Assembly: GCA_031288975.1 (NCBI GenBank)
Contig: JAITQK010000066.1
Location: 1 to 40,056, forward strand
Source of the DNA: Treponema sp.
GTDB taxonomy: Bacteria; Spirochaetota; Spirochaetia; Treponematales; Breznakiellaceae
Direction of reading: 5' to 3'
DNA: 40,056 nucleotides
Under the pieces are notes generated by a model. It did not search any database and had not been told where the DNA came from. It saw nothing but the letters and a program-made list of their open reading frames with translations. The translations under genes and the position numbers were made by a program. Of this stretch, positions 1,718-34,306 are shown in pieces. Positions within the stretch are counted from its first letter, which is position 1. Every line of letters starts with the position of its first letter.

Positions 1718-3586
1718 TCATAAACCGGGGCGGGCTAGGCGGAAACCGAGGCTGTTGTACCGGAGAGACGGGGTGCTGCTGTTCCGTAACGCCGAGCGCA
1801 GGTACTGGCCGCTGTTGTTCCAGCCCCCGCCGCGTTCAACGCGGTACGTGCCCGAGGACGCGCCCAAGGGATCAGTCTGAGCGCCGCTCGAATAACTCCC
1901 ATACCAATCCCAGCACCACTCCCAGACATTGCCGTGTAGGTCGTACAAGCCCCACGCATTCGCCGCAAAACTACCCACCGGCGCAGTATTTACATACCCA
2001 TCCCGTATATTGACGATAGTCCAGTCAGGATTTCTTTCTTTTGCAGTTAGATCCGCTACATTCGCTTTCCCTGCCAGCGATTCCGCCGTGGACCCGCTAT
2101 TATACGCCGTCGTTGTTCCCGCACGGCAGGCGTATTCCCATTCAGCTTCAGTGGGCAACCGGTAGCCATTGGTGTTCCGGTTCCACGTTACATTAGTGCC
2201 AGACACCGTATACGCAGGCGTCAAGCCTTCCTTGCGGCTCCGGGCGTTGCAGTATTCCACCGCCTCAAACCAGCTTACCTGCTCTACCGGCAGGTTGTCG
2301 CCCTTGAAAGAGCTGGGATTCTTCCCCATAAGCGCCGCGTATTCCTTCTGCGTTACCTCGTACTTCCCCATATAGAAAGAACTCACCGTTACCCGATGCT
2401 GAGTTTCATCACTATCCCGCCCCGTCTCCGACGCCAGACTTCCCATCATAAACGTCCCGCCGTTGATCCGCACCATGTCGTTGGGGACATTCGGCACAGC
2501 GGCGACAGTCAGTACCGTTACCACCGGCGACTTCCCGCTCTCCTCACTCCCCCTCACTGTAGACACCCAGAAGTAATAGGTTGTCCCGCTTGCCATACCC
2601 GTTACGTCCATGGATGTTCCGGTTGCCAGATTCCCCAAGGTACTCGCACGGGCTGGATCATTCTGCGTGTTGTAATAGACCTTGTAATTCACCCCAGACC
2701 CTGCGCTGTCCCAGTTCAGCGTTACACGGTCCGTGCCCGAGGTTCCCGCCCGCACATTCCGGGGAGCCTGGGGAGCTTGGGGCGCCATTACCACCCGCGC
2801 TGGCGCTGGTTGTGGAGCAGGCGCTGGCTGGGGCGCGGTCTCGCCCAGATACACGCTTCCAAAGAACTGGTTGTACACGGCGGGGATCTGTTCCCGGTTG
2901 CTGGCACTGGATACATCAGCGCCGGTACGTCGGAACACTTCGCTTACCTCAAGCCCAGGTGTTCCCAGATGCTTGAGCAGTTGGCTGGTAAACAGACCGT
3001 TCCGTCCGGTGCCGTCTGCAGCGGTTTTCCCTGCGCTGGTGGCATATACCACGATGCTGTCCGCTGGCTGACTCCCTATCACCTGTAAACCCCTCGTCCC
3101 GGTCCTGCCCCAGCTAAAGGGATTGTCCCGACACGCATCCAGCACCACGATGTTGAGGGCGTTCCCCGCGGCGTTCAGTTCGTCCAGCACCGCCTGTACG
3201 TGCAGCGCCTTGGTACGAAGGAACGACTCAGCTTTGATGTCCGCGTACACCGGGATCAGGTAGTTCTGCCCATTGGACTGCACCCCATGCCCGGCATAGA
3301 AGAAAAAGCCGTAGGCGCTGTTACTGGCGCTCAGGCGGTTCTTCATGCGGATTACCGCGTTTTCCATACGGTCAAGGTTGCCGTCCAGCACTTTGTCCAC
3401 CTGAAACCCCAGCCGCTGTAGGGTTGTGGCTATATCATTGGCGTCATTCACCGGGTTATTGAGCCGGGTAACGCTGGTATATGCCGCGTTCCCGATAACC
3501 AGGGCATATTTCTGCTGCGCCGATAGCACCCAGAGGGGGAAACATGCCAGGGCCAGGAAAACCAAAAAAGTCTTGAGTGAAGTCAT
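1718..3586 (-). CDS. Secreted multidomain protein. Signal peptide, caspase-like (peptidase C14) domain, Pro/Ala-rich linker, fibronectin type III domain, and a C-terminal formylglycine-generating-enzyme (FGE)-sulfatase / SUMF1-type domain
   Basis: Start trimmed to the ATG at 3586, which has AAGGAG 7 nt upstream. N-terminus 'MTSLKTFLVFLALACFPLWVLSAQQ' is a signal peptide. Caspase His/Cys dyad motifs 'YAGHG' and 'LDACRDNP'. Linker 'APQPAPAPQPAPA'. FN3-like 'TLNWDSAGSGVNYKVYYN...YYFWVSTV'. FGE-sulfatase motifs 'RINGGTFMMGS', 'YEVTQKEY', 'GYRLPTEAEWEYACRAG', 'GNVWEWCWDWY', 'RGGGWN'. Confidence 0.8.
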   Translation of the reverse strand: MTSLKTFLVFLALACFPLWVLSAQQKYALVIGNAAYTSVTRLNNPVNDANDIATTLQRLGFQVDKVLDGNLDRMENAVIRMKNRLSASNSAYGFFFYAGHGVQSNGQNYLIPVYADIKAESFLRTKALHVQAVLDELNAAGNALNIVVLDACRDNPFSWGRTGTRGLQVIGSQPADSIVVYATSAGKTAADGTGRNGLFTSQLLKHLGTPGLEVSEVFRRTGADVSSASNREQIPAVYNQFFGSVYLGETAPQPAPAPQPAPARVVMAPQAPQAPRNVRAGTSGTDRVTLNWDSAGSGVNYKVYYNTQNDPARASTLGNLATGTSMDVTGMASGTTYYFWVSTVRGSEESGKSPVVTVLTVAAVPNVPNDMVRINGGTFMMGSLASETGRDSDETQHRVTVSSFYMGKYEVTQKEYAALMGKNPSSFKGDNLPVEQVSWFEAVEYCNARSRKEGLTPAYTVSGTNVTWNRNTNGYRLPTEAEWEYACRAGTTTAYNSGSTAESLAGKANVADLTAKERNPDWTIVNIRDGYVNTAPVGSFAANAWGLYDLHGNVWEWCWDWYGSYSSGAQTDPLGASSGTYRVERGGGWNNSGQYLRSALRNSSTPSLRYNSLGFRLARPGL

Positions 3587-3613
3587 AGAATACTCCTTCT
3601 TAGTATGATAATT

Positions 3614-3627
3614 CCAGTATACCACAG
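3614..3627 (-). promoter_or_regulatory. Extended -10 promoter element (TGgTATACT) about 30 nt upstream of the caspase-FGE start
   Basis: Minus strand reads '...gctgTGgTATACTgg...aagaaggagtattctATG'. Confidence 0.4.
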
Positions 3628-3831: not shown

Positions 3832-4386
3832 ATGCATCGTACGTTGACGCTTGAAGAACAAAAGACCCTCCTGGCCAGTGCGCGGGAGACTATCGCCGCC
3901 AGGCTGGAAGGGCGGCAGCCCGTATACCCCCAGGAAGGCGTTGGCCTGGCCCAGCCCTGCGGGGCCTTTGTCACCCTCCATATTGGAACAAAGCTCAGGG
4001 GCTGTATCGGCAGGATGAGTGCCCCCTGGGGCTTGGAAAAAACAGTACGCCTCATGGCAGCGGCAGCGGCCTTTGAAGACCCCCGGTTTCCTCCCCTCAC
4101 CGCTGAGGAGTTGGGCCGCTGTCATATCGAAATATCCGCCCTGTCTCCCATGGAACCCTGCGCTGATCCCCGGTCCGTGGAAGTCGGGGTCCACGGTCTC
4201 TACCTCACCCACCAGGGCAGGTCCGGGGTGCTGCTCCCCCAGGTCCCGGTTGAACAAGGCTGGGAGCTGGATGCGTACCTGGATTATATCTGTGTTAAAG
4301 CCGGGCTGCCGCCCCAGGCTTACGATGAACCAGGGGCACAGCTCTACACCTTTACGGCTACGGTCTTTGGGGAGGATGCGCCATGA
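3832..4386 (+). CDS. AMMECR1-domain protein (AmmeMemoRadiSam system protein A-like)
   Basis: Start trimmed to the ATG at 3832 (AGAGGA RBS). Conserved 'CGAFVTLH...LRGCIG' AMMECR1 core. Its stop overlaps the next start (ATGA at 4383-4386). Confidence 0.75.
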   Translation: MHRTLTLEEQKTLLASARETIAARLEGRQPVYPQEGVGLAQPCGAFVTLHIGTKLRGCIGRMSAPWGLEKTVRLMAAAAAFEDPRFPPLTAEELGRCHIEISALSPMEPCADPRSVEVGVHGLYLTHQGRSGVLLPQVPVEQGWELDAYLDYICVKAGLPPQAYDEPGAQLYTFTATVFGEDAP

Positions 4387-6596
4387 ACACGGTCCTTACC
4401 GAATCTGCGGGCCGTTACGGCTACGACTTCATCACGACTCCCTATCTTCCCCCTGGGGAGGATGAATACTACCTCCGCAACCGCCAACTAGCAACGCTTT
4501 ACTCACCCACGCGGCAGGAGGGATACCGGCACCTCACTGCTGATGAAATCAAAGTCCTGGAAACTAACCGCAACTCCTGCGCCGCGTGGGAGCATGTCTG
4601 GGTGCGGGAGCGTTTTAATCCCCAGTTGATCCAGGATTGTCTCTTTGCAGGACTGGTGAGGATCGGCAACCTGGGCGGGGGCATACTGAGGTATCACGAT
4701 TACACCCTTCCGGTGGGCATCACCCGCAGCCGCGTCATATCCTGCGACATTGGGGACAATCCCGCGCTCCATGATTGTCATTACCTTTCCCATTACATCA
4801 TTGGCGACCAGGTCATCCTCAGTTCGATAGATGAAATGGATACCACGAATCATTCAAAGTTCGGCGCCGGGGTCATCAAGGAAGGGGAAGATGAGAGCCT
4901 GCGGGTGTGGATTGAGCCGCTGAACGAGGCGGGCGGACGGGGTATCCTGCCCTTTTACGATCTTATCTGTGCTGATGCCTATCTCTGGACTGTGTACCGT
5001 GAGGATCGGGAACTCATGGCGGCTTTTAAGGACCTTACCCAGCGTTCAGTTGATGCGCGCCGGGGGTATTACGGGGTGATTGGCCACGGGACCGTGATCA
5101 AGCACTGCCTCACCATCAAGGATGTGCAGGTCGGCGACGCGGCCTATATCAAGGGTGCCGGTAAGCTGAAGAACCTCACCATCAAGTCGGACCTTAAAGA
5201 CCCTACCCAGATTGGTGAAGGGGTAGAACTGGTGAACGGCATTGTCGGGTACGGGTGCCGGGTGTTTTACGGGTGCAAAGCCGTGCGCTTTGTGCTGGGT
5301 AATAACTGTAACTTGAAATACGGCGCACGGGTGATTCATTCGATTCTGGGGGATAATTCAACGGTTTCCTGTTGTGAGGTCCTCAATAACCTGGTGTTTC
5401 CTGCCCATGAACAGCACCACAACAACTCCTTTCTCATTGCCACCATGATCATGGGCCAATCCAACATGGCTGCCGGCGCCACTGTGGGTTCCAATCACAA
5501 CAGCCGGGGCAATGACGGGGAAATCATCGCTGGCCGGGGCTTCTGGCCTGGTTTGTCGAGCACGCTGAAACACAACTGCCGCTTCGCCAGTTATACGCTG
5601 ATTGCCAAGGGAAACTACCCTGCGGAACTGCATATCCCCCTGCCCTTCAGCCTGGTTACCAACAATGCGGATACTACCCGCCGGGAAGTGATGCCTGCTT
5701 ACTGGTGGCTGCACAACATGTATGCCCTTGAACGGAACAGTTGGAAATTCCGTAACCGCGATAAACGGATCTTCAGGAAACAGCATATTGAAATGGCCTA
5801 CCTTGCCCCGGATACCGTGGCTGAAATCATCCATGCCCTGGGTTTGCTTGAGGAATGGGCAGGCAGGGTCCAGCTCCCCGCCTGTACTGATGCTGAGGAA
5901 TTACGCCGCGTGGGGCGGGTCATGCTGGAGGATGAATCCGTTTCCCTCATGGTGGGGAATCGCACGCTGGAACGTTCTGTCCATAAGGTTCGCATCATCA
6001 AACCGGCCCAGGGGTACCGGGCCTACCGCGAAATGCTCTGTTACTACGGGGTGAAGACACTGCTGGAATTTCTTGCCCCTCCTGATACAGGGGATTTTAA
6101 CCGTTTCCAGGAAGCGTACCCCGAACCCATTGCCCTGGGCTGGGTTAATCTCGGAGGGCAGCTCGTGCCTGAAGCAAAGGCCGATGCCCTGCGCGGGGCA
6201 ATCTGCGATGGAAGGCTTGCCTCATGGGAGGCGATTCATGCTGAATATGAAAGACTGTGGCAGGAATATCCGCTGGACAAGGCCCTCAACGCGCTGCAGG
6301 TACTCCGTTTCCTGGAGGCTCCTCACCAGGATAAGGCGACAAACAGCGCCCTGGTGATCAACACCGGGCAATGGAACCGCCTTATCGAGCGCAGCATCAG
6401 TATCCGCCGCACTATTGAAGCCCAGGTCTATAAAACCAAACTCAAGGATTACATGGATCCGTTCCGGGGGATTACGTACCGGAACCAGGATGAACAAGCC
6501 GCGGTGCTGGGCAACATCGACGATAATCCTTTTGTCATAACAGCGCAGGAAGAAAGCGCACGGTTTTTTGCCCTTGCAGAACAGGGTAAAGGTTAG
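4383..6596 (+). CDS. Large conserved hypothetical protein (737 aa) with hexapeptide / left-handed beta-helix-like repeats. Possibly DUF4954-like
   Basis: Long ORF translationally coupled to the AMMECR1 gene. Repetitive 'GxVIxxxxxI/V' segments such as 'GHGTVIKHCLTIKDVQVGDAAYIKGAGKLKNLTIKSD' and 'VLGNNCNLKYGARVIHSILGDNSTV'. The family assignment is from memory only. Confidence 0.55.
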   Translation: MNTVLTESAGRYGYDFITTPYLPPGEDEYYLRNRQLATLYSPTRQEGYRHLTADEIKVLETNRNSCAAWEHVWVRERFNPQLIQDCLFAGLVRIGNLGGGILRYHDYTLPVGITRSRVISCDIGDNPALHDCHYLSHYIIGDQVILSSIDEMDTTNHSKFGAGVIKEGEDESLRVWIEPLNEAGGRGILPFYDLICADAYLWTVYREDRELMAAFKDLTQRSVDARRGYYGVIGHGTVIKHCLTIKDVQVGDAAYIKGAGKLKNLTIKSDLKDPTQIGEGVELVNGIVGYGCRVFYGCKAVRFVLGNNCNLKYGARVIHSILGDNSTVSCCEVLNNLVFPAHEQHHNNSFLIATMIMGQSNMAAGATVGSNHNSRGNDGEIIAGRGFWPGLSSTLKHNCRFASYTLIAKGNYPAELHIPLPFSLVTNNADTTRREVMPAYWWLHNMYALERNSWKFRNRDKRIFRKQHIEMAYLAPDTVAEIIHALGLLEEWAGRVQLPACTDAEELRRVGRVMLEDESVSLMVGNRTLERSVHKVRIIKPAQGYRAYREMLCYYGVKTLLEFLAPPDTGDFNRFQEAYPEPIALGWVNLGGQLVPEAKADALRGAICDGRLASWEAIHAEYERLWQEYPLDKALNALQVLRFLEAPHQDKATNSALVINTGQWNRLIERSISIRRTIEAQVYKTKLKDYMDPFRGITYRNQDEQAAVLGNIDDNPFVITAQEESARFFALAEQGKG

Positions 6597-10111: not shown

Positions 10112-10159
10112 TTGACATATTGTACTAGTTCATATACATTTGTATTAGATGAATAGTAC
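10112..10159 (+). promoter_or_regulatory. Promoter TTGACA-17-TACATT with a ~38-bp near-palindrome 'gtactagTTCATaTACAtttgTATtagATGAAtagtac' overlapping the -10 and the ATG of the YtrA/GntR gene. Leaderless start and putative autoregulatory operator
   Basis: Read directly. The palindrome arms 'gtacta...tagtac', 'ttcat...atgaa' and 'ataca..tgtat' enclose the start codon at 10149. No SD sequence precedes the ATG. Confidence 0.55.
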
Positions 10160-10544
10160 AAGTGAGGAACGATGTATACGTTTTTCTCTGGACCCGGTCA
10201 ATGGGGTACCGATATACCGGCAGATAATCCAACAGATAGAATATGCCATCCTATCTGAACGGATGCAGCCTGGGGACCGGCTGCCTACTATCCGGTCTTT
10301 GGCCGTGGAGCTGAAGATCAACCCTAACACCATTGCCAAGGCATACGGTGAACTGGAAATCAGGGGCATCCTGACGACCCAGGTGGGGAGCGGCACCTAT
10401 ATTTCGGATAAAAAACCCCTGCCTGAAGAGGACGGGAGAAAGCGGAAAATACAGGAAGTTCTTGGACGCTTTATCCAGGAGCTGGAAAAGCTGGGAGTGG
10501 ATAAAACGGAGCTTATCAGCCTCATTCAGGATTATGCCGGTTGA
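10149..10544 (+). CDS. GntR-family transcriptional regulator, short YtrA subfamily
   Basis: 131 aa. 'PIYRQIIQQIEYAILSERMQPGDRLPTIRSLAVELKINPNTIAKAYGELEIRGIL' winged-HTH with a short C-terminal helical tail. Confidence 0.85.
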   Translation: MNSTSEERCIRFSLDPVNGVPIYRQIIQQIEYAILSERMQPGDRLPTIRSLAVELKINPNTIAKAYGELEIRGILTTQVGSGTYISDKKPLPEEDGRKRKIQEVLGRFIQELEKLGVDKTELISLIQDYAG

Positions 10545-11653
10545 AACGGTTTGGTTATAAGGAGCATGCTGTGGGATTTGCGAAAGAGAAACAAGACAAG
10601 AAAGGGCTGATAAAAAAACTTCGGTTTGAAAAACGGCGGCGGGATTTTACCCTTAACGCGGTGGGGATAGGCTTCCTGGTTATTGGTATCCTCTTTGTCT
10701 TGGCGGTTTTATTTCTGAGGGGCGCTATGCCTTCCCTCATGGAATTAGGGCTTCTGGGAGGGGTTCCCTTGGGGGTCATAGTCATGATGCTGTTCTTTCC
10801 CCGATGGAGCGCAGGAATAAAAATGTATCTGTTGGTTCTGTGTATCGCGGGATTTGTAGGGCTTCCCCAATTCGGTTTAACCATCCTCTTTGCTTCCCTG
10901 GCAGTAATCATCGCCCCGTCAATACAAAAGTTGGACGAGTGGGAACGGGCCATTGTGCTGCGCTTTGGCCGGTTCAAGACTGTCCGGGGGCCAGGTCTCT
11001 TCACCCTCATTCCCCTGATGGACCGGGTTGCCAAGACCGTGGACATCCGTATTCGGGTCACGGATTTTTCCGCCCAGGAAACCCTCACCCTGGATTCGGT
11101 AACCGTTACGGTGGATGCATTCTGTTTCTGGCTGGTTTGGGACCCGCAAAAAGCGGTGCTGGAAGTGGAGGACTATCAGGAGGCGGTGGTTTTGGCATCC
11201 AAGGCAGCTCTGCGGAACGCGGTGAGCAGTAATACTCTTTCCACCTTCCTTGAGCATGGCGACATTATCGAAAACCAGATACAAGCTGAGGTTGACAAGC
11301 AGACCACCGAGTGGGGCATCACGGTTCAATACATCGAGATTACCGATATCCAAATCCCAGAAGCCTTGCAAGATTCCCTGTCCCGGCTTGCCCAGGCGGA
11401 ACGGGAAAAGAAGGGCCGCATTCTCCTGGCAGAAGCGGAGGTCGAGATTGCCCGGAAACTGGAAGAGGCGGTGCAGATTTACGCCAAAACCGAACCGGCA
11501 ATGAAGCTGAAGATTCTTTCCATATTAAACGAGGGTCTCAAGGCGGGGAACTCCATGATGCTGGTCCCCAATTCCATCACCGAGGAACTCAAGGCCGGGG
11601 GGATTTTCGGCTTAGAAGCACTGAATGAGGTGAAGAAAGGTACTAGGGAATAG
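10541..11653 (+). CDS. SPFH/band-7 (stomatin/HflK-like) protein with an extra N-terminal multi-TM region
   Basis: 'ERAIVLRFGRFKTVRGPGLFTLIPLMD...VDIRIRVTDF' SPFH core and a coiled-coil 'AQAEREKKGRILLAEAEVEIARKLEEA'. Three to four hydrophobic segments lie N-terminal. ATGA overlap with the GntR stop. Confidence 0.8.
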   Translation: MKRFGYKEHAVGFAKEKQDKKGLIKKLRFEKRRRDFTLNAVGIGFLVIGILFVLAVLFLRGAMPSLMELGLLGGVPLGVIVMMLFFPRWSAGIKMYLLVLCIAGFVGLPQFGLTILFASLAVIIAPSIQKLDEWERAIVLRFGRFKTVRGPGLFTLIPLMDRVAKTVDIRIRVTDFSAQETLTLDSVTVTVDAFCFWLVWDPQKAVLEVEDYQEAVVLASKAALRNAVSSNTLSTFLEHGDIIENQIQAEVDKQTTEWGITVQYIEITDIQIPEALQDSLSRLAQAEREKKGRILLAEAEVEIARKLEEAVQIYAKTEPAMKLKILSILNEGLKAGNSMMLVPNSITEELKAGGIFGLEALNEVKKGTRE

Positions 11654-11698
11654 TTGGAAGAAAAAAGGAAAAAAAAAGGAAAAAAATGGAGGTTTTGT

Positions 11699-12382
11699 AT
11701 GACCGTAGTAAAAGCGGTTAATGTGGTTAAGGATTATTCCTTAAACGGGATCGAGGTACATGCCCTGCGAGGGGTGAACCTCTCATTCGAGGGCGGGGAG
11801 TTTACCGCCATTGCCGGGCCGTCGGGAAGCGGCAAGTCAACCTTCCTGCACCTGACCGGGTGTTTGGATACCATCACTGCCGGGGAGATCAGCATCGCCG
11901 GTTCCAATACCGCGGCACTGTCGAAAAAGCAGCTCGCCCTTCTGCGGCGGAATAGCATCGGCTTCATCTTTCAGGCTTATAACCTTATCCCAGTGCTTTC
12001 CTGCCTCGAAAACGTGTCCTTCCCCCTCACCCTCCTGGGGGTGAACAAACGAGAGGCCCGGGAACGTTCCCTGGAGGCCTTGCAGGATGTGGGACTGGTA
12101 GGTATGGAGAACCGCAGACCCAAGGAGATGTCCGGTGGCCAGCAGCAACGGGTGGCCATTGCCCGTGCGCTGGTGAAGCAGCCCGCCCTGATCCTCGCAG
12201 ACGAGCCAACGGCGAATCTGGATTCAAAAACCGGGAAGGAAATCCTCGAACTCATGGTTAAGCTCAACAAAAGTGTGGGGACCACCTTCATCTTCTCAAC
12301 CCACGACGACATGGTCATGGACTATGCCCGCAGGATCATCATGCTCCGGGACGGGCAGATTGAAAAGGAAACGGTAAAATAA
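11699..12382 (+). CDS. ABC transporter ATP-binding protein (MacB/LolD-like)
   Basis: Walker A 'GPSGSGKST', signature 'LSGGQQQRVAIARAL', Walker B 'ILADEPTANLD'. Start trimmed to the ATG at 11699 (GGAGG RBS). Confidence 0.9.
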   Translation: MTVVKAVNVVKDYSLNGIEVHALRGVNLSFEGGEFTAIAGPSGSGKSTFLHLTGCLDTITAGEISIAGSNTAALSKKQLALLRRNSIGFIFQAYNLIPVLSCLENVSFPLTLLGVNKREARERSLEALQDVGLVGMENRRPKEMSGGQQQRVAIARALVKQPALILADEPTANLDSKTGKEILELMVKLNKSVGTTFIFSTHDDMVMDYARRIIMLRDGQIEKETVK

Positions 12383-14130
12383 TGGCAAACTTCGATATAA
12401 ATAATGCGGTTGAACTGAAACGCATCGCCTTCAGGAACCTGGCTCGGCACAAGGTGAAAACCATCCTGACCGTGCTGGGGATCATGATCAGCGTTACCCT
12501 GTACATCTTCATGGACGGCTGGATCACCGGGGCCAGCGCTGAATCCCGGCGGAACATCGTCAACTACGAGCAAGGGGCGGCAAAACTCCAGACCAAACGG
12601 TACTTCGAGAAGAAGGACGAGTTACCCATGTACGAGAATTTCGATAATTGGGAATCCTACGCCGCGGTGCTGGACAAAGCAGGCTATGACAGCGCCCCTC
12701 GCTTCGTTTTTTCCGGGACCCTCTATTCGATGACCGGTTCGGCACCCATCATGTTCAACGGCGTGGACCCTGCATCGGAAAGCCGGCTCCTCCGGTACAC
12801 GCCGTACTTGGAATCAGGCCGGTACATCCGGGATGGCACCTTTGAGCTTGCCCTGGGAGCCATGGTAGCGGAGAAGCTCAAGGTCGGCATCCCCCAGCGC
12901 CTCACCTGGAGGGAACTGGAACAGGACATTCTCCCACTGGCCCCTCTTCAAAACGACCAGGACTTCATCCGCTCCCTCTATGAGCCGGTGGAGAAGAAGA
13001 AAAGCGGGTTTATGAATCCCATGACCGAAGAGGCAATAGCGGCCCAGGAAGACCGGCTGATCCTTAAAAAAGAGATACCCCCAGCGGAGCTTGCCCGGTA
13101 CTGGGACCTCCTGGACGCCACAGGCCGCAACGATGTGCGGCTCTCTACGGTGATCGACATAAAGGCCGCCCCCGATGCGGTAAGCAAGACCAAATTCGAG
13201 GTGGATCTCGCTCCATTCCTGGACGCTTCTGAGCTGGCCCTCTTTAACCAAGCCTACGAATACGACGAACTCACCGAAGCCTACTACCTGGCCTCGGATG
13301 ATCCGGTCCTCTCGAATCAAATCCTCAGCGCCATGGTGCGGGTGGATTATGCTGGGGCAATCCGCCACGTGAATCAGCTTATGAGCGCCGTAGTGGTAGG
13401 GGTGATCAATTCCCCGGATCCGATGACCAACGCCAATATCGCCTATATGCCCCTGGATGTGCTTCAGGATGAGGCGGGACTTATGCTGGAGGGCCATGTT
13501 ACGGAACTGCTGATCCGCCAAAAGAACGCCTCCGACGCGGAACTTCCCGGCAAAAACGAAGGGGCCCCACGTATCCAGGCTGCCCTGGAATCGGGACTTG
13601 CGGAACAGGGAGCAGCCCTGCCGGAAGATCTGGCGGTCTTTTTCTGGTTGGACTACATAGCGGACTACCTTGGGTATGAAAACACGGAAAACATGAGCAG
13701 CCGGATCATGGCGCTCCTGCTTTTCATCCTGGCTTTCATGGGAATTGCCAACACCATGCTCCTGGCGATTCTGGAGCGGACCAAGGAAATCGGCATGATG
13801 CGGGCCATGGGCATGACCGACGGGCAGTTGATCGTTACCTACATGGTGGAAGCGGGCTTTGTGGGGCTTATCGGTTCCCTTTTGGGTATCTTCGCCGGCT
13901 GCTGTATCAACTTCCCCATGGTGAAGTACGGCATGGACTTCTCAGCCATGGCGGAACAGATGGGGGGGAACATCGGCTACCGGGTTACCTCCCAGATGCG
14001 CTCCATGTGGAACCTGCCGGTGATCATCGGTTCCGGCGTGGTGGCAACCCTCCTGGCCTCCCTTATGGCGATTTTCCCGACCCGTAGGGCGGTTAAGATG
14101 CCGGTTACGGAAAGCCTGCGGTTTGAGTGA
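12382..14130 (+). CDS. ABC transporter permease, FtsX/MacB-like, with a large periplasmic domain
   Basis: N-terminal 'AFRNLARHKVKTILTVLGIMISVTL' TM1, a periplasmic insert of about 380 aa, then a C-terminal FtsX 4-TM bundle 'ILERTKEIGMMRAMGMTDGQL'. Confidence 0.8.
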   Translation: MANFDINNAVELKRIAFRNLARHKVKTILTVLGIMISVTLYIFMDGWITGASAESRRNIVNYEQGAAKLQTKRYFEKKDELPMYENFDNWESYAAVLDKAGYDSAPRFVFSGTLYSMTGSAPIMFNGVDPASESRLLRYTPYLESGRYIRDGTFELALGAMVAEKLKVGIPQRLTWRELEQDILPLAPLQNDQDFIRSLYEPVEKKKSGFMNPMTEEAIAAQEDRLILKKEIPPAELARYWDLLDATGRNDVRLSTVIDIKAAPDAVSKTKFEVDLAPFLDASELALFNQAYEYDELTEAYYLASDDPVLSNQILSAMVRVDYAGAIRHVNQLMSAVVVGVINSPDPMTNANIAYMPLDVLQDEAGLMLEGHVTELLIRQKNASDAELPGKNEGAPRIQAALESGLAEQGAALPEDLAVFFWLDYIADYLGYENTENMSSRIMALLLFILAFMGIANTMLLAILERTKEIGMMRAMGMTDGQLIVTYMVEAGFVGLIGSLLGIFAGCCINFPMVKYGMDFSAMAEQMGGNIGYRVTSQMRSMWNLPVIIGSGVVATLLASLMAIFPTRRAVKMPVTESLRFE

Positions 14131-14157
14131 GGAGTGAAAGGAATGAGGAGTGCACAG

Positions 14158-14844
14158 ATGGATTTTACGGATAAATACGCACTTAGGCGGGAGCAGAGTT
14201 TATTTCTGGCTAAGAAGAAATGGGACGAGAACATTTATTGCGGGATGCGGATGGAAAACAGGAATGTTACTTTTCCTGACACCCAGACCATCCTCTCTGG
14301 CGTGAATGTAGGACATATTTCACTGGATGACATACAGGCAATCCTCAATATGCGGGATGCGTGGAAGTATCTGTTGAATACCATTGATGAGGACCTGTCT
14401 CTGGGGTATCTGTGTACCCTGAATGGGTATGTTTCCCGTAACGAGTCCCTTGCCTGGGGGGTGCTGCGCAGCGGCGCAGTAGGTATCGGCGGCGTTAACT
14501 ACCAGCCCCCCATTCCTGATGGGGAAGGGGCGGCCCGGGAACTTGGACTCATACTGACTCAGGAGGGAATGGCCACGGAAAAGGCCCTGGACCTCTTCCT
14601 CTGGGGAACCAGGAGCCAATTGTTCTGGGATGGTAACAAGCGTACCAGCCTGCTGGGGGCGAACAAAATCTTGGTAGCCTCTGGCTGCGGTATGCTGACC
14701 ATTGCCGAGAGGAACATTGCGGCGTTTAACCGGCTTTTATCGGCCTATTACGAATCCGGCGATGGGCAAGAACTCAAGGGATTTCTCTATGAGAAGACCA
14801 TTACAGGAATCGAATTCCCGCATAAGGCGCTCAGTGAGCAATGA
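14158..14844 (+). CDS. Fic/Doc-family-like protein with a degenerate active-site motif ('QLFWDGNKRTS' in place of HPFx[D/E]GNGR)
   Basis: 'LFWDGNKRTSLLGANKIL' resembles the Fic core motif, but the catalytic His is Gln and the second Gly is Lys. GAGGAG RBS 7 nt before the ATG at 14158. The family call is tentative. Confidence 0.4.
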   Translation: MDFTDKYALRREQSLFLAKKKWDENIYCGMRMENRNVTFPDTQTILSGVNVGHISLDDIQAILNMRDAWKYLLNTIDEDLSLGYLCTLNGYVSRNESLAWGVLRSGAVGIGGVNYQPPIPDGEGAARELGLILTQEGMATEKALDLFLWGTRSQLFWDGNKRTSLLGANKILVASGCGMLTIAERNIAAFNRLLSAYYESGDGQELKGFLYEKTITGIEFPHKALSEQ

Positions 14845-14855
14845 AAGGAGTACCT

Positions 14856-16130
14856 ATGGTTTACGAAGTAAGAAAACGAGGTGGTTTTGGGACCCTGATG
14901 ACGATTGCCTTCAGGAATATCGGGCGTAACATCAGACGGACCATTTTCTGTGTGGTGGCGGTTGCCTTCGCCGTGTTCTTCAGCATCTTCATGCAGTCCT
15001 GGCTTGCGGGGATGACCGACAATATCGCCAGAGTGGTGCAGGTGTTTGATGTGGGACACGTCAACGCGGTTTCATCAGGATACGAGGCGGAAAAGGAATA
15101 CTACCCCGTTCAGTATCCTGTGGGGGAAGGCCGGAGCCGCTCTGCATTAACCGGGGAGATCAAAGCCATTCCCGGGGTAAAGGCGGTGTTTCCCCGGATA
15201 AGCGCCTACGCCACCTTGCAGGAAAGTACCCTCAAACACGCCATCCTCTGGGGGCTTGAGGTTGAAGAAGAAATGAAGGTCAACCACTTCAACGTATCCG
15301 AGCGCAGTAACGGACTCAAAGAAGGCCGCTACCCTCGGGAGGGCAGCAATGAATGTGCCATTGGCCTGGCTATGGCAAACAAAGTGGGCTTCAAAATCGG
15401 AGACCGGATCCCCTTAAAAACGGTTTCCGCCCAGTTTTCCGATAAGATGTGGAGCCCTGAAATAGTCGGCTTCTTTGAGTTCGATTACCTGAAATACGAC
15501 GAGGACGTCATTGTGGTGCCCTTTGACCGGCTCCAGCGGCTCCTCGTGCTGGGGGACGGAACTCAGCAACTCTTTATCTTTGCCCAGGACAACACCAAAA
15601 GCAAGGCCATTGCCAAAGAGGTGCAAAAGCTCCTCGGTGAGGGGAATGTGGTACGGGAATGGCAGGACAATTACTGGGTCGCTATCATGCAGCAAAGTCA
15701 GGCTATCTATGTGGTGGTGTACCTGGTCTTTATGATTGTGGCGAGTTTTCTCATTGTGAACACCGTGGTGATGATCATCCACGAGCGGATCAAGGAAATC
15801 GGCATGATGGGTTCCCTGGGTATGACCCGCCGTGAAATCGTGGAGGTCTTCTTCTTCGAGGCCCTCTTCCTAAGCATCATCGGGTCTTTGACCGGAGTCT
15901 TTGTAGGCGGTGTTTTAACCGGCATACTCCAGTTCTTCCCCATGGATTTTGGTTCCATCTACGGCAGTACCTTTAAGGAATTCCCCATGTCAGGAACGCT
16001 GTTCACCCAGTTCTCGGTGAAGGCGCTTCTGCAGGGCTTTATCCTGGGGGTGGTGATCGCGTCGGTCTGTACCCTGATTCCCTCGCTCAAGAGCGCCTTT
16101 GTCGAACCGGTAGAAGCGCTGCGGAGATAG
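14856..16130 (+). CDS. Second ABC transporter permease, FtsX/MacB-like
   Basis: 'IAFRNIGRNIRRTIFCVVAVAFAV' TM1, a periplasmic domain, and a C-terminal 'IHERIKEIGMMGSLGMTRREI' FtsX motif. AAAGGAG RBS. Confidence 0.8.
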   Translation: MVYEVRKRGGFGTLMTIAFRNIGRNIRRTIFCVVAVAFAVFFSIFMQSWLAGMTDNIARVVQVFDVGHVNAVSSGYEAEKEYYPVQYPVGEGRSRSALTGEIKAIPGVKAVFPRISAYATLQESTLKHAILWGLEVEEEMKVNHFNVSERSNGLKEGRYPREGSNECAIGLAMANKVGFKIGDRIPLKTVSAQFSDKMWSPEIVGFFEFDYLKYDEDVIVVPFDRLQRLLVLGDGTQQLFIFAQDNTKSKAIAKEVQKLLGEGNVVREWQDNYWVAIMQQSQAIYVVVYLVFMIVASFLIVNTVVMIIHERIKEIGMMGSLGMTRREIVEVFFFEALFLSIIGSLTGVFVGGVLTGILQFFPMDFGSIYGSTFKEFPMSGTLFTQFSVKALLQGFILGVVIASVCTLIPSLKSAFVEPVEALRR

Positions 16131-16141
16131 TGAGGAACTAT

Positions 16142-16435
16142 ATGGAACCACGTTTTATCAATACTAAATTGACGGCCCTCTTCTTTCGGGAAGATGAGGA
16201 TACCATTATCGCATCATGTCCTACGCTGGACATCGCTACCTGTGGAAGCACCCTGGAAGAGGCCCGCAAAAACTTTACGGAGATGGTTGAGCTGTTTCTG
16301 GAGGAAGCCCACCGCATGGGAACCCTGGAACAAGTTCTCGCCGAGTGCGGTTGGAAGAAAGTAAAGGACCAGTACATCCAGCCAACCCTTATTGCCACCG
16401 GGATGGAGGATATCAGAATTCCATGCAGCCCTTAA
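16142..16435 (+). CDS. hicB: Type II toxin-antitoxin system HicB-family antitoxin
   Basis: 'FFREDEDTIIASCPTLDIATCGSTLEEARKNFTEMVELFLEE' matches the HicB N-terminal (partial RNase H-like) domain pattern. GAGGA RBS. Overlaps the hicA start by 13 nt. Confidence 0.6.
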   Translation: MEPRFINTKLTALFFREDEDTIIASCPTLDIATCGSTLEEARKNFTEMVELFLEEAHRMGTLEQVLAECGWKKVKDQYIQPTLIATGMEDIRIPCSP

Positions 16436-16653
16436 AGCCGGTTCCCTTCACCACCTTTGAGAAGTTTTTGACTTACGCAGGCTGTGTATTGGTGCGGCAG
16501 AAGGGAAGTCATCGTTCTTATCAGCGGCCGGGTTTAATCCGCCCGATCATTGTTCCTTACCGGAACGAGATTCCGGTCTACATCATTAAAAATACGTTGC
16601 GTAATCTGGGAATGGATACTGATACGTTTCGGGCCATTCTTGGGCAGCTATAA
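16423..16653 (+). CDS. hicA: Type II toxin-antitoxin system HicA-family toxin (mRNA interferase)
   Basis: 'FEKFLTYAGCVLVRQKGSHRSYQRPGLIRPIIVPYRNEIPVYIIKNTLRNLGM' matches the HicA dsRBD-like pattern (GxxxxxxKGSHxxY...PxH). Confidence 0.7.
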   Translation: MQPLKPVPFTTFEKFLTYAGCVLVRQKGSHRSYQRPGLIRPIIVPYRNEIPVYIIKNTLRNLGMDTDTFRAILGQL

Positions 16654-16673
16654 ATGATACTTTGGAGGTTTTT

Positions 16674-17426
16674 ATGAAAACGACCGTATGTATGGTTACA
16701 TGGTTATTGACGGTATCGGCCTTGGTTATGCCGGTATATGCACAGATGCCCTCGGCACTGGAACTGTTGCAGCGGGTGGACAACAACGAGGTCTACGACA
16801 CCATTGAGTACGAAGGGGAGATGATCATCGATTATCAGAACCGGCGCTATGTGAAGACCATGAAGGCTTATGCGCGAAGCAATAACGATAGCTTCATCGA
16901 ATTTCTCAATCCCGAAGACCGGGGAACCAAGTACCTCAAGCAAAAGGGCCGCCTGTACGTGTATTCCCCGGACACCGAAGAGGTGATGCTCATCTCCGGG
17001 CACATGCTCAAGGAATCCATGATGGGGTCAGACCTCTCCTACGAGGATACCATTGACAACGAGAAGCTGTCGGTCCGCTATGCCCCGGTACTTGCCGGTT
17101 CCGAGACCTACAACGGCAGACCGGCCTGGGTACTGTATCTCACCGCCAAGAACCTTAAGCGGGAAAGCTATCCCAAGCAGAAGCTTTGGATCGACCAGGA
17201 AAACGGCGATATGCTCCATTCCGAGCTGTTCGCCCTTTCAGGGTCCAAGCTCAAGGAATCTACCCTCATTCGGGTTGAAACCATAGGGGGACGCCGGTTC
17301 CCTGTGGAATTGGAAATGCGGGACCTCCTGCGGCGGGGAAGCAAGACCACCTTTGTGATGCGTAATGTGGTTCTGGACAAGCCCATCCCGGATTCGGTGT
17401 TTAGTCAGCGGAACCTGGGACGGTGA
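16674..17426 (+). CDS. LolA-like outer-membrane lipoprotein-sorting (carrier) protein family
   Basis: Signal peptide 'MKTTVCMVTWLLTVSALVMPVYA', size about 250 aa, and a 'YSPDTEEVMLISGHMLKESMMGSDLSYEDT' region typical of LolA_like/DUF1571-type proteins found beside FtsX transporters. GGAGG RBS. Confidence 0.6.
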   Translation: MKTTVCMVTWLLTVSALVMPVYAQMPSALELLQRVDNNEVYDTIEYEGEMIIDYQNRRYVKTMKAYARSNNDSFIEFLNPEDRGTKYLKQKGRLYVYSPDTEEVMLISGHMLKESMMGSDLSYEDTIDNEKLSVRYAPVLAGSETYNGRPAWVLYLTAKNLKRESYPKQKLWIDQENGDMLHSELFALSGSKLKESTLIRVETIGGRRFPVELEMRDLLRRGSKTTFVMRNVVLDKPIPDSVFSQRNLGR

Positions 17427-17506
17427 AGTTCGGTAAATAGTTAATAGTGAGTAGGTGATAGCACATCACTCCTGTTCACTATTCTCTATAATAAGGGAGA
17501 AATGGA

Positions 17507-18688
17507 ATGATACGGTTGTTGATTGTGGTTTTGTTTATCGTAACAGCGGCTTTTCCAGCACTTGCCGCTGATGGGCCGGTGCTTTCCGGTCTCTTGGATA
17601 CCATCGTGAACCTCGGCGCCGGCGCTGGGGAAGCAGATGACTTTTCTTATGGCATAGAAGAGGTGGCCAATCTACGGATGCAGACGAAAATCAAGGATAA
17701 GGGGGTGTTTTACGGGGCCTTCAACCTCATCGCTGTCTCCGGGACTGCCCTGGGGGGCATGAACGCTGGTACGTATCCAGGGCTATCCACCTCAGCCTTA
17801 GTAGCCGGTGAAAACTACGCCGCTGCCCTGGAACTGGAACGGCTCTATTTCCGGGTTACCGGTGAATACCTCGATGTGGATACCGGACTCATGCGCCTGG
17901 CCTTTGGTTATGGGCAGGTCTTCGGCTCCTCCGACTTCCTCAACCCCAGAAACCCCCTGTTCCCCGACGCCCGGCCACGGGGGATCCTGGGAAGCGCCGT
18001 TTCGGTCTATCCTACGGATACGGCCAAGGTACTTGCCTTTGCCACGGCCCCGAAAAATCCCTTCAACAGCAACGGTAACGGGTTCCTGTTCGGGCTTTCC
18101 GGGGACAAGCATTGGGATAAGGTGAGCCTGCAGGTCCTCTATGCCTTTGAGACACCCCAGGAAGCTTCCTCCTTTGGGATTCACCGGGGAGGACTGTCCC
18201 TGAAGGCGGACGTTGAAGTGGGGCTTGTGGCGGATATGCTCTACACCTACAACCACGAAACCACCGAGGGCATTGACGGGCTTTCTGTTGGTGCGGGGTT
18301 TGACTACTCCTTTTACGACGGGAATTTTTATGTGCTTGCGGAATACCTGTTTAACGGTTCCACCTCAGCCACTGCCCGGAGCGCCGGCAATCCAACCGGG
18401 TTTGCCAACCAGCATTACCTCTACGCCATGCTTCGCTACGCTTTTAACGACTATACCAGTACAAGCCTTGCCTGTATCGTCTCTTTTGAGGATATTTCCT
18501 TTGCCCCTATCCTCAGTGTGGAACACGAGCTGTTTCAGGGCCTGACCCTGAGTTTCTCAGGCCGGCTGCCCCTGGACCGGGACGTATTTTCCGGGAATGG
18601 CGAGTGGGGAGAGCTAGGCCCGATTCCACCAGGCGTGGAAGCCGGGACCCGTTTTCTGTTTACCGCCAAGGCGCGGCTGCGGTTTTAG
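17507..18688 (+). CDS. Predicted outer-membrane beta-barrel protein (signal peptide, C-terminal Phe)
   Basis: 'MIRLLIVVLFIVTAAFPALA' signal peptide. Alternating aromatic/hydrophobic strands. C-terminal '...FLFTAKARLRF' ends in Phe, as OMP beta-barrels do. Confidence 0.6.
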   Translation: MIRLLIVVLFIVTAAFPALAADGPVLSGLLDTIVNLGAGAGEADDFSYGIEEVANLRMQTKIKDKGVFYGAFNLIAVSGTALGGMNAGTYPGLSTSALVAGENYAAALELERLYFRVTGEYLDVDTGLMRLAFGYGQVFGSSDFLNPRNPLFPDARPRGILGSAVSVYPTDTAKVLAFATAPKNPFNSNGNGFLFGLSGDKHWDKVSLQVLYAFETPQEASSFGIHRGGLSLKADVEVGLVADMLYTYNHETTEGIDGLSVGAGFDYSFYDGNFYVLAEYLFNGSTSATARSAGNPTGFANQHYLYAMLRYAFNDYTSTSLACIVSFEDISFAPILSVEHELFQGLTLSFSGRLPLDRDVFSGNGEWGELGPIPPGVEAGTRFLFTAKARLRF

Positions 18689-18924
18689 AGGTTTGAGGAT
18701 GGGCCAATAAATGTACCTGATGTTTATTGCTTTGTGTAAGGTCTCCTGTCAAAGGTTTTGAAAGAAGCTCGCTTGCAAAAAAAAGTATGTTCTGAATTGA
18801 AGTTAATCGTAATACCGCTTAACATGGTGTAAAATCTTGTTTAATAGTCAAGCTCTTTCAAAAGAGGCTCAAGAGTTAGTAGTTTGTTTCAAATGAATAT
18901 AGAAAATTAAGGAAGTATCCTTAA

Positions 18925-18958
18925 ATGTTGACTTTCTGTTCATGTTTGGTTATATTCA
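18925..18958 (+). promoter_or_regulatory. Sigma70-like promoter TTGACT-17-TATATT in an AT-rich spacer
   Basis: Read directly as 'TTGACTttctgttcatgtttggtTATATT'. It lies about 140 bp upstream of the IS-remnant ORF. Confidence 0.4.
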
Positions 18959-19094
18959 ACTTGAGAGTGGCAAATGCTCGAATTTATCCGTATTGTAACG
19001 CTCTGTAGGCACTGTATAGAGCAATACGTTTTAAAAAAAAATACACTAATAGAGTGTATTGTAAAGAATTTGCGACTCACAACTATTTAAATAT

Positions 19095-20096
19095 ATGATT
19101 AGATACAAGATTGCAGAGTTTGCGTTTCGTTTAGGGATTTTCGCTGCCACTGTTCGTCGTTGGGAGCGCGCAGGAAATTTACTATATGCAGCTATGCAGG
19201 CTTATGGTTACACACGTATACAAAACTTGAACCGAGCGCATAAGGTTGAGTTTATACTCAACAACGAACAGCGCACGCTTCTCAACAAACACTTTGGTTC
19301 AGCTCTTAACGCTCACGTTACCTCTTGTGAAGTAATCCGCCACTTTGGTACCTCTTTTAAATCGTTCTTCACAGGAAAGACCAAGCACCCCCGCTTTCAC
19401 ACTAAAAAATCCGGTGTCGAAGACAATCGCTCTGTTGAGAACCAAGACGAGGTGATTGGCATAGACCTTGGGATAAAAGAAATGGCTACTTGTTCGGATG
19501 GACCTGTGATAGAAAATCCCAGAATAAGTAATCGATTTGCTTCTCAACTTCGCCGCTATAATAAACGCCTTGCACAGCGTACACAGGGTTCACACCGTTG
19601 GTGGAGGACCGTATATGCCCTGCGAGAGCTACATTATAGCATCGCCTGTTGCCGTAACGGCTACATCCATAAGTTCACTCCTGCTTTCACCGGACAATAC
19701 GGTGTTATAGGTTCAGAGGACTTGAACGTACAAGGCATGGCTCAAAACCATCACCTTGCTCGTTCAATCTTGGATGTATCTTTTTACGAGATTGGTAGGC
19801 AGTTGAGTTACAAAGCAAAAGAACTGCGTTTGGTTGGGCATTTCGCTCCATCTTCAAAGACGTGCAGTTCCTGTGGTCATGTTAAGCATGATTTAACACT
19901 CAAGGATCGTATTTACGTCTGTCCTGATTGTGGCCTAGCAATAGACCGTGATTTGAACGGGGCGATAAATATTTCCCGGTGGGCTACACCGGTTCCGGAC
20001 GTGGACAAGAAAGCTCTGGTCTGTGATACGATTAGCGTCGTATCACGTGGGAAACTATGCTTGGATGAAGCGTCAAGTGGACTTCAATGTGCGTAA
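19095..20096 (+). mobile_element. tnpB: IS607/IS605-family remnant: a single ORF in which an IS607 TnpA MerR-type HTH N-terminus is fused in frame to a shortened TnpB (OrfB) with intact RuvC-I/II/III and zinc-finger motifs
   Basis: 'KIAEFAFRLGIFAATVRRWERAGNL...GYTRI' resembles the MerR HTH and GHRRY box of IS607 serine-recombinase TnpA. TnpB N-terminal motif 'VEFILNNEQRTLLNKHFG'. RuvC-I 'IGIDLGIK'. RuvC-II 'GSEDLNVQGM'. Zn finger 'CSSCGHV...CPDCG'. RuvC-III 'DRDLNGAINI'. The sequence is AT-rich relative to its neighbours. The TnpA catalytic domain and part of the TnpB middle are missing. Confidence 0.75.
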
Positions 20097-23861: not shown

Positions 23862-23873
23862 CCATTCACTACG

Positions 23874-24221
23874 TTGGAGGTGGCGGGAGTCGAACCCGCG
23901 TCCTAATACGCGAAATACACGCCTCTACAGGTTTATCCGTACATTACATTGTCGGGACGGGCTTAACTGCACGGCATGTGGCCCATCCGTATTCCGGAGT
24001 TGTCTCGTCGCCCCCCGTCCGGAAACAGAGCTTGACCAGCCTTGATTGCGACGGAAATTCGGCTCCTCAAGGCGGCGGAGCCGGTTCCCGCGCTCTACTG
24101 CTTACGCAGCGAGAGCGTAACTGTCATAGTCGGCAGTTAAATTGTTGCCGAATGTTAGGAGATCGGCACTCCACCTGCAGCCTGCACCCCGAATCGTACC
24201 AGTCGAAACCGGTGCACCCCC
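23874..24221 (-). ncRNA. ssrA: tmRNA (ssrA), ~348 nt
   Basis: Minus strand 5' 'GGGGGTGCACCGGTTTCGACTGG...' and 3' tRNA-like '...GGACGCGGGTTCGACTCCCGCCACCTCCA'. The acceptor stem GGGGGTG/CACCTCC pairs. Internal tag ORF '...GCC GAC TAT GAC AGT TAC GCT CTC GCT GCG TAA' reads (GNNLT)ADYDSYALAA*, ending in the canonical ALAA. CCA is not encoded. Confidence 0.85.
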
Positions 24222-33279: not shown

Positions 33280-33302
33280 AATGACTCCCTTAAAAATACC
33301 CT

Positions 33303-34295: not shown

Positions 34296-34306
34296 ATTGC
34301 TTCCTT

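Follow-up and report, generated by a model that had tools for sequence, protein, structure and literature searches.

A conserved carrier–barrel cassette in a treponemal operon and its possible role as a regulated Lol-like shuttle

Ten co-directional genes form a candidate envelope transport operon

The window analyzed here is a stretch of 40,056 nucleotides from the metagenome-assembled genome (MAG) of a termite-gut Treponema (GenBank assembly GCA_031288975.1, contig JAITQK010000066.1, positions 1 to 40,056 of the forward strand), and the subject of this work is a candidate envelope transport operon on its plus strand, at positions 10112–18688. An earlier note, made from the sequence alone, had described this region as a cluster of ten genes encoding a YtrA-type repressor, an SPFH protein, an ABC ATPase, two FtsX permeases, a Fic-like protein, a HicBA pair, a LolA-like protein and an outer-membrane β-barrel. 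Inspection of the open reading frames (ORFs) found all ten co-directional genes where that note had placed them, and their family assignments were upheld by Pfam and NCBIfam (Table 1). We read the locus, with a probability of roughly 0.55, as an inducible, Lol-like, ATP-driven shuttle that would carry a lipidic cargo from the inner to the outer membrane.

Inspection of the gene junctions showed that the ATPase gene and the gene of the long permease (FtsXL) have one base in common (TAATG), which agrees with the stop–start overlap described earlier. The ATGA reported for the GntR/SPFH junction was misplaced: the actual sequence there is TTGA, a TTG start over the TGA stop, and ATGA belongs to the junction between the Fic-like gene and the gene of the short permease (FtsXS). 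The GTG at 10571, preceded by AAGGAG, is a likelier SPFH start than this TTG. For the ATPase, Fic-like, FtsXS, HicB, HicA and carrier genes, the starts in Table 1 are the likely true ones. A Shine-Dalgarno site was found before each gene, gntR alone excepted; that of the ATPase gene reads GGAGG.

Table 1. Features of the operon, with window positions and the basis of each assignment
Feature	Position	Strand	Basis and remarks
Promoter/operator module	10112..10161	+	Promoter scan, inverted-repeat detection, conservation of a 49-nt block
YtrA-subfamily GntR repressor, 131 aa	10149..10544	+	PF00392, 60 bits; predicted (near-)leaderless start
Stomatin-type SPFH protein	10541..11653	+	Band_7, 125.8 bits; likelier start GTG 10571
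LolD/MacB-type ABC ATPase, 227 aa	11699..12382	+	ABC_tran, 109 bits; ORF open from 11654
Long FtsX/MacB_PCD permease (FtsXL), 582 aa	12382..14130	+	Pfam FtsX plus split MacB_PCD; four TM segments
Mobile Fic/Doc-like gene, 228 aa	14158..14844	+	Precomputed PF02661 of homologues; start as called by NCBI
Short LolC/E-like FtsX/MacB_PCD permease (FtsXS)	14856..16130	+	FtsX 70 bits, MacB_PCD 51 bits; ORF open from 14841
hicBA insertion, 533 bp	16124..16656	+	HicB-like 16142-16435; HicA 16423-16653
Periplasmic LolA-superfamily carrier, 250 aa	16674..17426	+	PF17131, 166.5 bits; TP_0789/LolA3/DUF1329 type
Outer-membrane 18-strand β-barrel, 393 aa	17507..18688	+	AlphaFold2 model; signal peptide, C-terminal Phe

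A five-gene core is conserved in treponemes and in distant genomes

A scan with the barrel alignment, taking one genome per species, retrieved 80 loci, all from termite-gut Treponema or Breznakiellaceae (individual loci are designated below by numbers with the prefix L). The window proteins were searched against these loci by tblastn, and a locus was counted as informative for a gene when it included enough upstream DNA. The carrier gene was present in 58 of 59 informative loci, the short permease gene in 46 of 47, the long permease gene in 39 of 40 and the ATPase gene in 35 of 36. Gene order was constant among the treponemal loci, with median gaps of −41 to +52 nt, and the flanks varied from locus to locus.

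The barrel family is small, with 363 matches at E ≤ 1e-3 among 1.84 billion cluster representatives. Four very distant full-length members, one of them from Ca. Coatesbacteria, could be placed in their genomic context, and all four share the cassette in the order ABC_tran – FtsX – FtsX – TP_0789-like – barrel. Because the linkage holds both in the treponemal loci and in these four, we regard the five-gene cassette as a conserved unit; that its genes belong together in this way is close to certain, and recurrence in dozens of related genomes puts the arrangement far beyond chance. Neighborhood conservation, which the earlier note had named as a test able to refute its grouping, thus came out in support of it. 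The linkage is near-universal for these five genes (35/36 to 58/59) and looser for the two genes at the head of the operon, gntR being found in 21 of 29 informative loci and the SPFH gene in 21 of 30. GntR and SPFH constitute a lineage-specific head outside the universal core. In three of the four distant cassettes, a MarR/MmpR5-like or other helix-turn-helix (HTH) regulator takes the place of GntR, and in the fourth, that of Ca. Coatesbacteria, the contig stops just upstream of the ABC gene.

The window barrel is annotated as hypothetical protein LBU17_03675 and has relatives in termite-gut Treponema, Breznakiella and Brucepastera, and a homologue search with the carrier returned close termite-gut homologues only. 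In two MAGs we observed two carrier–barrel cassettes on separate contigs (L066 and L079 in Kf353_bin129; L050 and L076 in Pc512_bin78), which suggests paralogous systems whose cargo may differ.

The inner-membrane components resemble a Lol-type extractor

As in the Lol pathway, the cassette encodes a separate ATPase and two distinct FtsX permeases, each with four transmembrane (TM) segments and a periplasmic domain. Both permeases match PF02687 and PF12704. In each, a single TM segment at the N-terminus is combined with a periplasmic MacB_PCD domain, and further hydrophobic segments cluster at the C-terminus. They are only ~27% identical to each other over alignable stretches, so the second permease is indeed a different one, as had been noted. 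The nearest solved relatives of the short permease are LolF, LolE and LolC. For the long permease, similarity to its relatives in the Protein Data Bank (PDB), namely YtrF, MacB and LolE, is confined to the TM domain, and its periplasmic part contains a lineage-variable insertion of ~150 aa (residues about 172–325, window positions 12895–13356) that the L086 homologue lacks altogether and that has half this size in L004. No membrane-fusion (MacA/HlyD) domain was detected in the ten products or in the related loci, and the barrel returned no match to outer-membrane efflux proteins (OEP). The absence of a membrane-fusion protein and of a TolC/OEP factor, together with the Lol-like relatives of the short permease, supports the earlier view that the system resembles a lipoprotein or lipid exporter more than a drug pump.

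The SPFH protein carries the N-terminal TM bundle that had been claimed for it: hydropathy analysis gave three to four TM segments at residues about 39–129. Its nearest solved chains are stomatin, PH stomatin and QmcA.

The carrier belongs to the LolA3/DUF1329 branch and is paired with the barrel

The periplasmic carrier scored far above the cutoff of 30 bits for PF17131 (LolA_like, now TP_0789-like) and has a cleavable Sec signal peptide without a lipobox. In a Foldseek search, its AlphaFold2 (AF2) model (pLDDT 85.8) was matched best by 4z48 (DUF1329), 3buu and 9tp6 (Porphyromonas gingivalis LolA3), with TM scores of 0.72–0.77, the closest folds being those of LolA3, DUF1329 and NE2245. Scores against canonical LolA, LolB and RseB were 0.3–0.5, and those against solved LolA proteins alone were 0.39–0.45. 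The description of the protein as LolA-like therefore holds at the level of the superfamily fold, but the carrier is of the LolA3/DUF1329 type and not a LolA.

The barrel has no Pfam match, carries a signal peptide and ends in ...RLRF. Its AF2 model is a monomeric 18-strand barrel (pLDDT 80.9), in keeping with the β-barrel with a C-terminal Phe inferred earlier, and structure comparison likened it to the channels AlgE, Occ and chitoporin. Its gene lies directly 3′ of the carrier gene in 58 of 59 treponemal loci, in all four distant ones and in 57 of 68 Bacteroidales lolA3 loci; the barrel is the cognate partner of the carrier.

The Bacteroidales loci were reached through the LolA3 sequence of the PDB alignment, which led to the P. 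gingivalis locus and to Bacteroidales relatives in metagenomes. In the 57 loci, lolA3 is followed by a DUF1302-like barrel of 413–425 aa, and the usual neighbors are an MMPL/RND pump, two ABC_membrane half-transporters and a TetR regulator. One example is L094:4359-13299, which, like about 60 Bacteroidales metagenome loci, has the order TetR – MMPL – LolA3 – DUF1302-like barrel – two ABC half-transporters. The paper on Flavobacterium johnsoniae LolA3 does not contain the term 'ABC transporter', and the LolA3 passages of the P. gingivalis paper give no gene neighborhood.

To compare the two kinds of barrel we used hhalign. A narrow treponemal profile (36 sequences, Neff 2.5) gave no signal against the Bacteroidales barrels, and a match was obtained once distant representatives had been added: the widened profile aligned end to end with the Bacteroidales barrels at a probability of 82% in local mode (E 1e-5) and 97% in global mode (E 8e-11), whereas reversed and block-shuffled controls gave at most 0.7%. 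The DUF1302 Pfam model (PF06980) matched neither the window barrel nor its 36 relatives, and sub-threshold DUF1302 matches were found in two distant members of the family. On these profile comparisons, the treponemal and the DUF1302-like Bacteroidales barrels appear to be remotely homologous. Since both partners would then be homologous across the two groups, carrier and barrel can be viewed as a homologous two-gene module that is used by different inner-membrane engines.

We also considered Treponema pallidum TP0786–TP0788 as an FtsX ABC system adjoining TP0789, the protein that gave PF17131 its name. This proved wrong, because TP0784–0786 are LptC/A/B in the literature and TP0790 is AcrB-like (PMC8407342); the adjacency of TP0790 to TP0789 is taken from locus numbering only. 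Literature searches on TP0789, and on the combination of LolA-like, FtsX and Treponema, returned nothing relevant.

A near-invariant promoter module overlaps the gntR start codon

The GntR protein has its PF00392 domain at residues 23–85 and a short C-terminal extension of about 45 aa, the architecture of the YtrA subfamily. It matches the short regulators Lmo0741 (4r1h), 3by6, Lmo2241 and CGL2947 over its full length, and its best short-regulator matches in NCBIfam are the Rv1152 family and PmtR. This supports the claim that a YtrA-type repressor heads the cluster, and the order typical of such operons, with the regulator first and an ABC ATPase and permease behind it, is kept in 21 of 29 loci.

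A 49-nt block 5′ of gntR shows ~92% column identity in 21 sequences, against 51–54% in its flanks. Its consensus is TTGACAT-ATTGTACTAGT-nCATT-TAnnAT-TGTACTAG-ATG-AATAGTACAA, and it comprises a consensus −35 box, a 17-nt spacer, a −10 box and three copies of TTGTACTA, two direct and one inverted. In the window, the −35 box is TTGACA, the 17-nt spacer holds box 1 (TTGTACTAG), the −10 box is TACATT, box 2 (TTGTATTAG) lies 3′ of the −10 box, and box 3 (TAGTACAA) is inverted. Boxes 2 and 3 make a palindrome around the gntR start codon, as found by inverted-repeat detection. The three conserved boxes thus overlie both promoter and start codon and are a candidate operator for GntR. Across 958 kb of related loci, the 9-mer TTGTACTAG turned up 47 times, far above the ~7 occurrences that we estimate for a random 9-mer; 20 of these loci carry the module, in which two or three copies are found.

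The gntR ATG starts 8 nt past the −10 box, and the window gene has no alternative in-frame start. This geometry supports a predicted transcript that is leaderless or near-leaderless and self-repressed, and together with the near-invariance of the promoter it favors the leaderless start proposed earlier. The GntR N-terminus MNST is kept while the next residues vary, presumably because the MNST codons are at the same time operator DNA.

The module also occurs without the regulator. L042 (4440-4530), which has neither gntR nor the SPFH gene, has kept the module intact immediately 5′ of the ABC gene, with a five-codon stub, MNSTI-stop, behind it, and degenerate copies are retained in L047, L071 and L085. 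Judging from these remnants, we suggest that the head genes were lost by deletion in L042-type cassettes, which may be controlled in trans. The GntR-less loci L059 (4640-4885), L065, L070 and L073 have another conserved 5′ region in common, with two TATTGACATA repeats and a GC-rich leader of ~100 nt with hairpins that matches no Rfam family. An Rfam scan of the window region and of this alternative 5′ region revealed no riboswitch and no leader RNA.

The YtrA-type operons ytrGABCDEF of Bacillus subtilis and PmtR-pmtABCD of Staphylococcus aureus likewise begin with a short GntR regulator and encode a MacB-class ATPase and an FtsX-family permease (YtrE/YtrF). They are repressed by their own regulator (PMC12772383), as we predict for the operon studied here. 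Unlike the latter, they belong to Gram-positive hosts and have no outer membrane, carrier or barrel to serve, and neither a leaderless start embedded in the operator nor an SPFH gene has been described for them. The near-invariant operator with its embedded, predicted leaderless start could provide a clean model of YtrA-type control.

Toxin-type genes are inserted at two junctions of the operon

The earlier note had regarded the Fic-like gene and hicBA as foreign to the operon, and the comparison of loci agrees: both are missing from nearly all of them, and hicBA is a clean 533-bp insertion, aligned to 12 nt in L006 (a contig 92–96% identical to the window) and not found in any other locus. 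The Fic-like gene recurs in only one of the 80 scanned loci, the 92%-identical L006, where it occupies the same junction. Codon usage differs as well, since third-position GC content (GC3) is 0.62 for the Fic-like gene and 0.56–0.58 for hicBA, against 0.69–0.74 for the flanking genes. The Fic-like gene and the hicBA pair are both mobile insertions.

HicA was recognized by PF07927 (about 46 bits; cutoff 27), and HicB only weakly, its UPF0150 score of 18 bits lying below the cutoff of 27.3. The Fic-like protein has no Pfam match of its own (E < 0.01) and aligns weakly with FICD (E 0.15). It belongs to a family of 5,423 homologues, 62–70% identical in Clostridia, most of which carry a precomputed PF02661 assignment. 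In its motif, QLFWDGNKRTS, Gln replaces the catalytic His of HxFx(D/E)GN(G/K)R; all 12 aligned members have the DGNKRTS core, and the Gln is ≥90% conserved among them. The DGNKR core resembles the P1 Doc motif. Unlike Fic/Doc toxins, the gene has no adjacent antitoxin within the window, and PADLOC detected neither SoFic nor any other defence system among the Fic-like, HicAB and SPFH genes.

In L006, the Fic-like gene is preceded by an extra 190 nt (3990-4179) and followed by a 63-aa ORF that overlaps its stop codon (4865-5056). Because both segments are missing from the window, the window insertion appears to be a trimmed version. In L086 and L087, which were reached through a Fic homologue, the gene sits at a different junction. 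We considered whether recurrence at two junctions marked it as a functional partner of the transporter but did not adopt this as the main explanation, since outside treponemes the gene is found within integrase/HTH islands or by itself, flanked by housekeeping genes.

Other cargo occupies the same two junctions elsewhere: a VapC/PIN pair in L015:1757-2409, an oppositely oriented HicAB-like pair in L082:2046-2410, and long tandem repeats in L070, L073 and L042. In Brucepastera L032:7542-9077, a co-oriented gene for a 511-aa cardiolipin-synthase-like phospholipase D (PLD) family protein lies between the short permease and carrier genes, a single-case hint at a link with phospholipids. The variety of cargo at the same two junctions marks these as permissive landing sites, and the repeated arrival of toxin-type genes there could make the operon usable as a natural assay of the sites at which mobile toxin genes settle.

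Proposed mechanism

We propose that a dimer of the YtrA-type GntR protein would bind the three boxes, which cover the −35/−10 spacer, the start of transcription and the start codon of gntR, and that its release would allow synthesis of a leaderless polycistronic mRNA. A dimer of the LolD-like ATPase would then drive a heterodimer of the two FtsX/MacB-type permeases, forming a type VII mechanotransmission ABC transporter that would pull an amphipathic or lipidic cargo (a lipoprotein, a glycolipid or another lipid) out of the inner membrane at its outer face. The cargo would be passed from the transporter to the soluble LolA3/DUF1329-type carrier and brought to the cognate 18-strand barrel, which would insert or release it at the outer membrane. 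In this lineage, the stomatin-type SPFH oligomer probably organizes or gates the inner-membrane complex. Having landed at permissive junctions, the Fic/Doc-like gene and hicBA would ride on the operon transcript.

A number of findings weigh against the shuttle. The best NCBIfam model for the ATPase is LolD (TIGR02211), but the score of 225.6 bits does not reach the cutoff of 307.75; with the lolCE model (TIGR02212, cutoff 362.45), the short permease scored 126.5 bits over almost the whole model and the long one 58.3. No LolA-family Pfam model was returned for the carrier, and its P. gingivalis relative LolA3, whose structure has been solved, is reported not to bind LolB and has no assigned function (PMC13103446; PMC11885536). 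The barrel model looks like a substrate channel of the porin, AlgE or Wzi type and not like any insertase known for lipoproteins or lipids. Type VII ABC systems of the FtsEX kind carry no substrate at all. At the level of the operon, the barrel gene is preceded by an 80-nt gap, a terminator scan found no strong or convincing intrinsic terminator 3′ of it, and YtrA-type operons of Firmicutes are tied to antibiotic and cell-wall stress, not to lipid export (PMC12772383). Finally, Pseudomonas DUF1302/DUF1329 mutants show nutrient-type phenotypes on fatty esters (bioRxiv 10.1101/2020.07.04.188060), and the direction of transport is therefore not fixed as outward.

Alternative readings

The strongest competitor, and still an unlikely one, is a detoxification or efflux pump of the MacB/Pmt/Ytr type that would be induced by stress. 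Its type VII ABC transporter would expel an amphipathic toxin, an antimicrobial peptide or a self-made peptide from the membrane or periplasm, and the carrier and a porin-like barrel would replace the MacA–TolC duct. The YtrA-type regulator with its similarity to PmtR and the Rv1152 family fits this reading, and ytr-type operons react to envelope-active antibiotics (PMC12772383). The ATPase scores against darobactin and bacteriocin exporter models nearly equal its LolD score, the barrel is similar to the AlgE, Occ and chitoporin channels, and the distant cassettes are headed by MarR/MmpR5-like repressors, as efflux operons are. However, the ten products include neither a membrane-fusion protein nor a TolC-type factor, the conserved partner of the permeases is a LolA-superfamily protein with a hydrophobic groove, and LolC/E/F, not MacB, are the nearer relatives of the short permease.

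FtsEX-like mechanotransduction without transport, in which the FtsX domains would switch a LolA/RseB-like partner during envelope remodelling or stress signalling, has long odds against it. It would account for the membership of both permeases in the FtsX family, for the secondary match of the carrier to the MucB/RseB N-terminal domain (E 6e-6) and for the large variable periplasmic insertion of the long permease. At no examined locus, however, does the cassette contain a gene for a hydrolase, an anti-sigma factor or a protease, and the strict pairing of carrier and barrel, which persists beside the RND/MMPL pumps of Bacteroidales, points to cargo traffic.

The odds are a shade longer for uptake, whereby a hydrophobic nutrient (for example a fatty acid or ester) would enter through the barrel, cross the periplasm with the carrier and be taken by the ABC complex into or through the inner membrane. 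In favor of this, DUF1302/DUF1329 genes of Pseudomonas are required for growth on Tween 20 and butyl stearate (bioRxiv 10.1101/2020.07.04.188060), and the window barrel appears remotely related to DUF1302-like barrels. The cassette encodes no importer-type substrate-binding protein, however. In addition, the characterized type VII ABC transporters (LolCDE, MacB, FtsEX) act outward or as extractors and not as importers, which argues against uptake on general grounds.

That the operon is simply the housekeeping LolCDE–LolA lipoprotein pathway of the organism is very improbable: LolD and LolC/E are its best curated models and LolF/E/C the nearest solved permeases, but every score falls far under the equivalog cutoffs, the carrier belongs to PF17131 with a fold nearer to LolA3 than to LolA, a dedicated repressor stands in front, toxin-gene insertions are tolerated, some MAGs have two cassettes (L066/L079; L050/L076), and the barrel family is very small (363 of 1.84 billion representatives).

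Comparison with known systems and implications

The preferred reading, a Lol-like shuttle, places the operon beside several known systems. In the literature searched, an operon of this composition has not been described. With LolCDE–LolA(–LolB) and the LolDF variants it has in common a separate LolD-like ATPase, a two-permease FtsX heterodimer and a LolA-superfamily carrier with a Sec signal. It differs in that the acceptor would be the 18-strand barrel and not the lipoprotein LolB, with repressor control and an SPFH gene in addition. The operon is not a member of the LolCDE–LolA family, because it fails both the curated cutoffs and the carrier family.

MacAB–TolC shares the FtsX/MacB_PCD architecture and a MacB-class ATPase with the window system, which differs in lacking a fused nucleotide-binding domain, a MacA-type adaptor and a TolC/OEP factor; without adaptor and TolC, it is not a MacAB–TolC pump. 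In silico work has proposed that the plasmid cluster BBJ23–BBJ29, reported in Borrelia only, extracts a non-polar ligand for delivery to the outer membrane (PMC13078400). Its barrel is Omp85/TamA-like, its permease is homodimeric, and it has extra chaperone-like genes. Since the window barrel is not Omp85-like, the operon does not belong to this type.

The carrier–barrel pair has a parallel in the LolA3/DUF1329 + DUF1302 modules (the P. gingivalis PGN0947 region, Pseudomonas PP_0765/0766 and T. pallidum TP0789). There, a homologous carrier is directly followed by a barrel of 390–425 aa that would be remotely homologous to the window barrel, and in Pseudomonas the DUF1329/DUF1302 genes are co-fit with an RND pump on Tween 20 (bioRxiv 10.1101/2020.07.04.188060). 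The engine of these modules is an MMPL/RND pump, accompanied in Bacteroidales by ABC_membrane half-transporters, whereas in the window it is a type VII FtsX ABC transporter. The same pair would thus be drivable by RND/MMPL pumps or, here, by a Lol-like type VII ABC extractor.

How lipoproteins or lipids reach the outer membrane without LolB is a standing question in spirochaetes and several other phyla, and for the LolA3/DUF1329 branch of the LolA superfamily there are solved structures but no assigned function. As a tentative extension, which we consider improbable, the PF17131 carrier and the DUF1302-related barrel might constitute a LolB-independent device for the delivery and insertion of acylated cargo and, combined with the LolCDE-like extractor, a self-contained second Lol-type pathway with a β-barrel acceptor. 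If this were true, bacteria without LolB, spirochaetes among them, would have a way to bring certain lipoproteins or glycolipids into or onto the outer membrane, and the orphan LolA3 proteins of Bacteroidota would acquire a function. The compact five-gene cassette is present in the cultivable Breznakiella homolactica and Treponema primitia, which makes cargo and direction testable.

Other features of the window

An AT-rich stretch (18689-19094) separates the operon from a TnpB/OrfB_IS605 (Cas12f-like) gene directly 3′ of it (19095-20096, plus strand), near which there is no TnpA gene. The N-terminus of this TnpB looks truncated or replaced, because the OrfB domain begins only at residue 108. 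Further downstream, on the minus strand, lies an efflux locus (30019-35800) with an AcrB-type RND pump (30019-33279), an ORF (33303-34295) and an OEP factor (34307-35800), so that the organism has ordinary TolC-type pumps outside the operon. The minus strand also carries a tmRNA gene at 23872-24221 (Rfam RF00023, 149 bits) and, at 1718-3625, the gene of a 635-aa protein in which caspase (Peptidase_C14), fn3 and FGE-sulfatase domains are joined in an unusual fusion.

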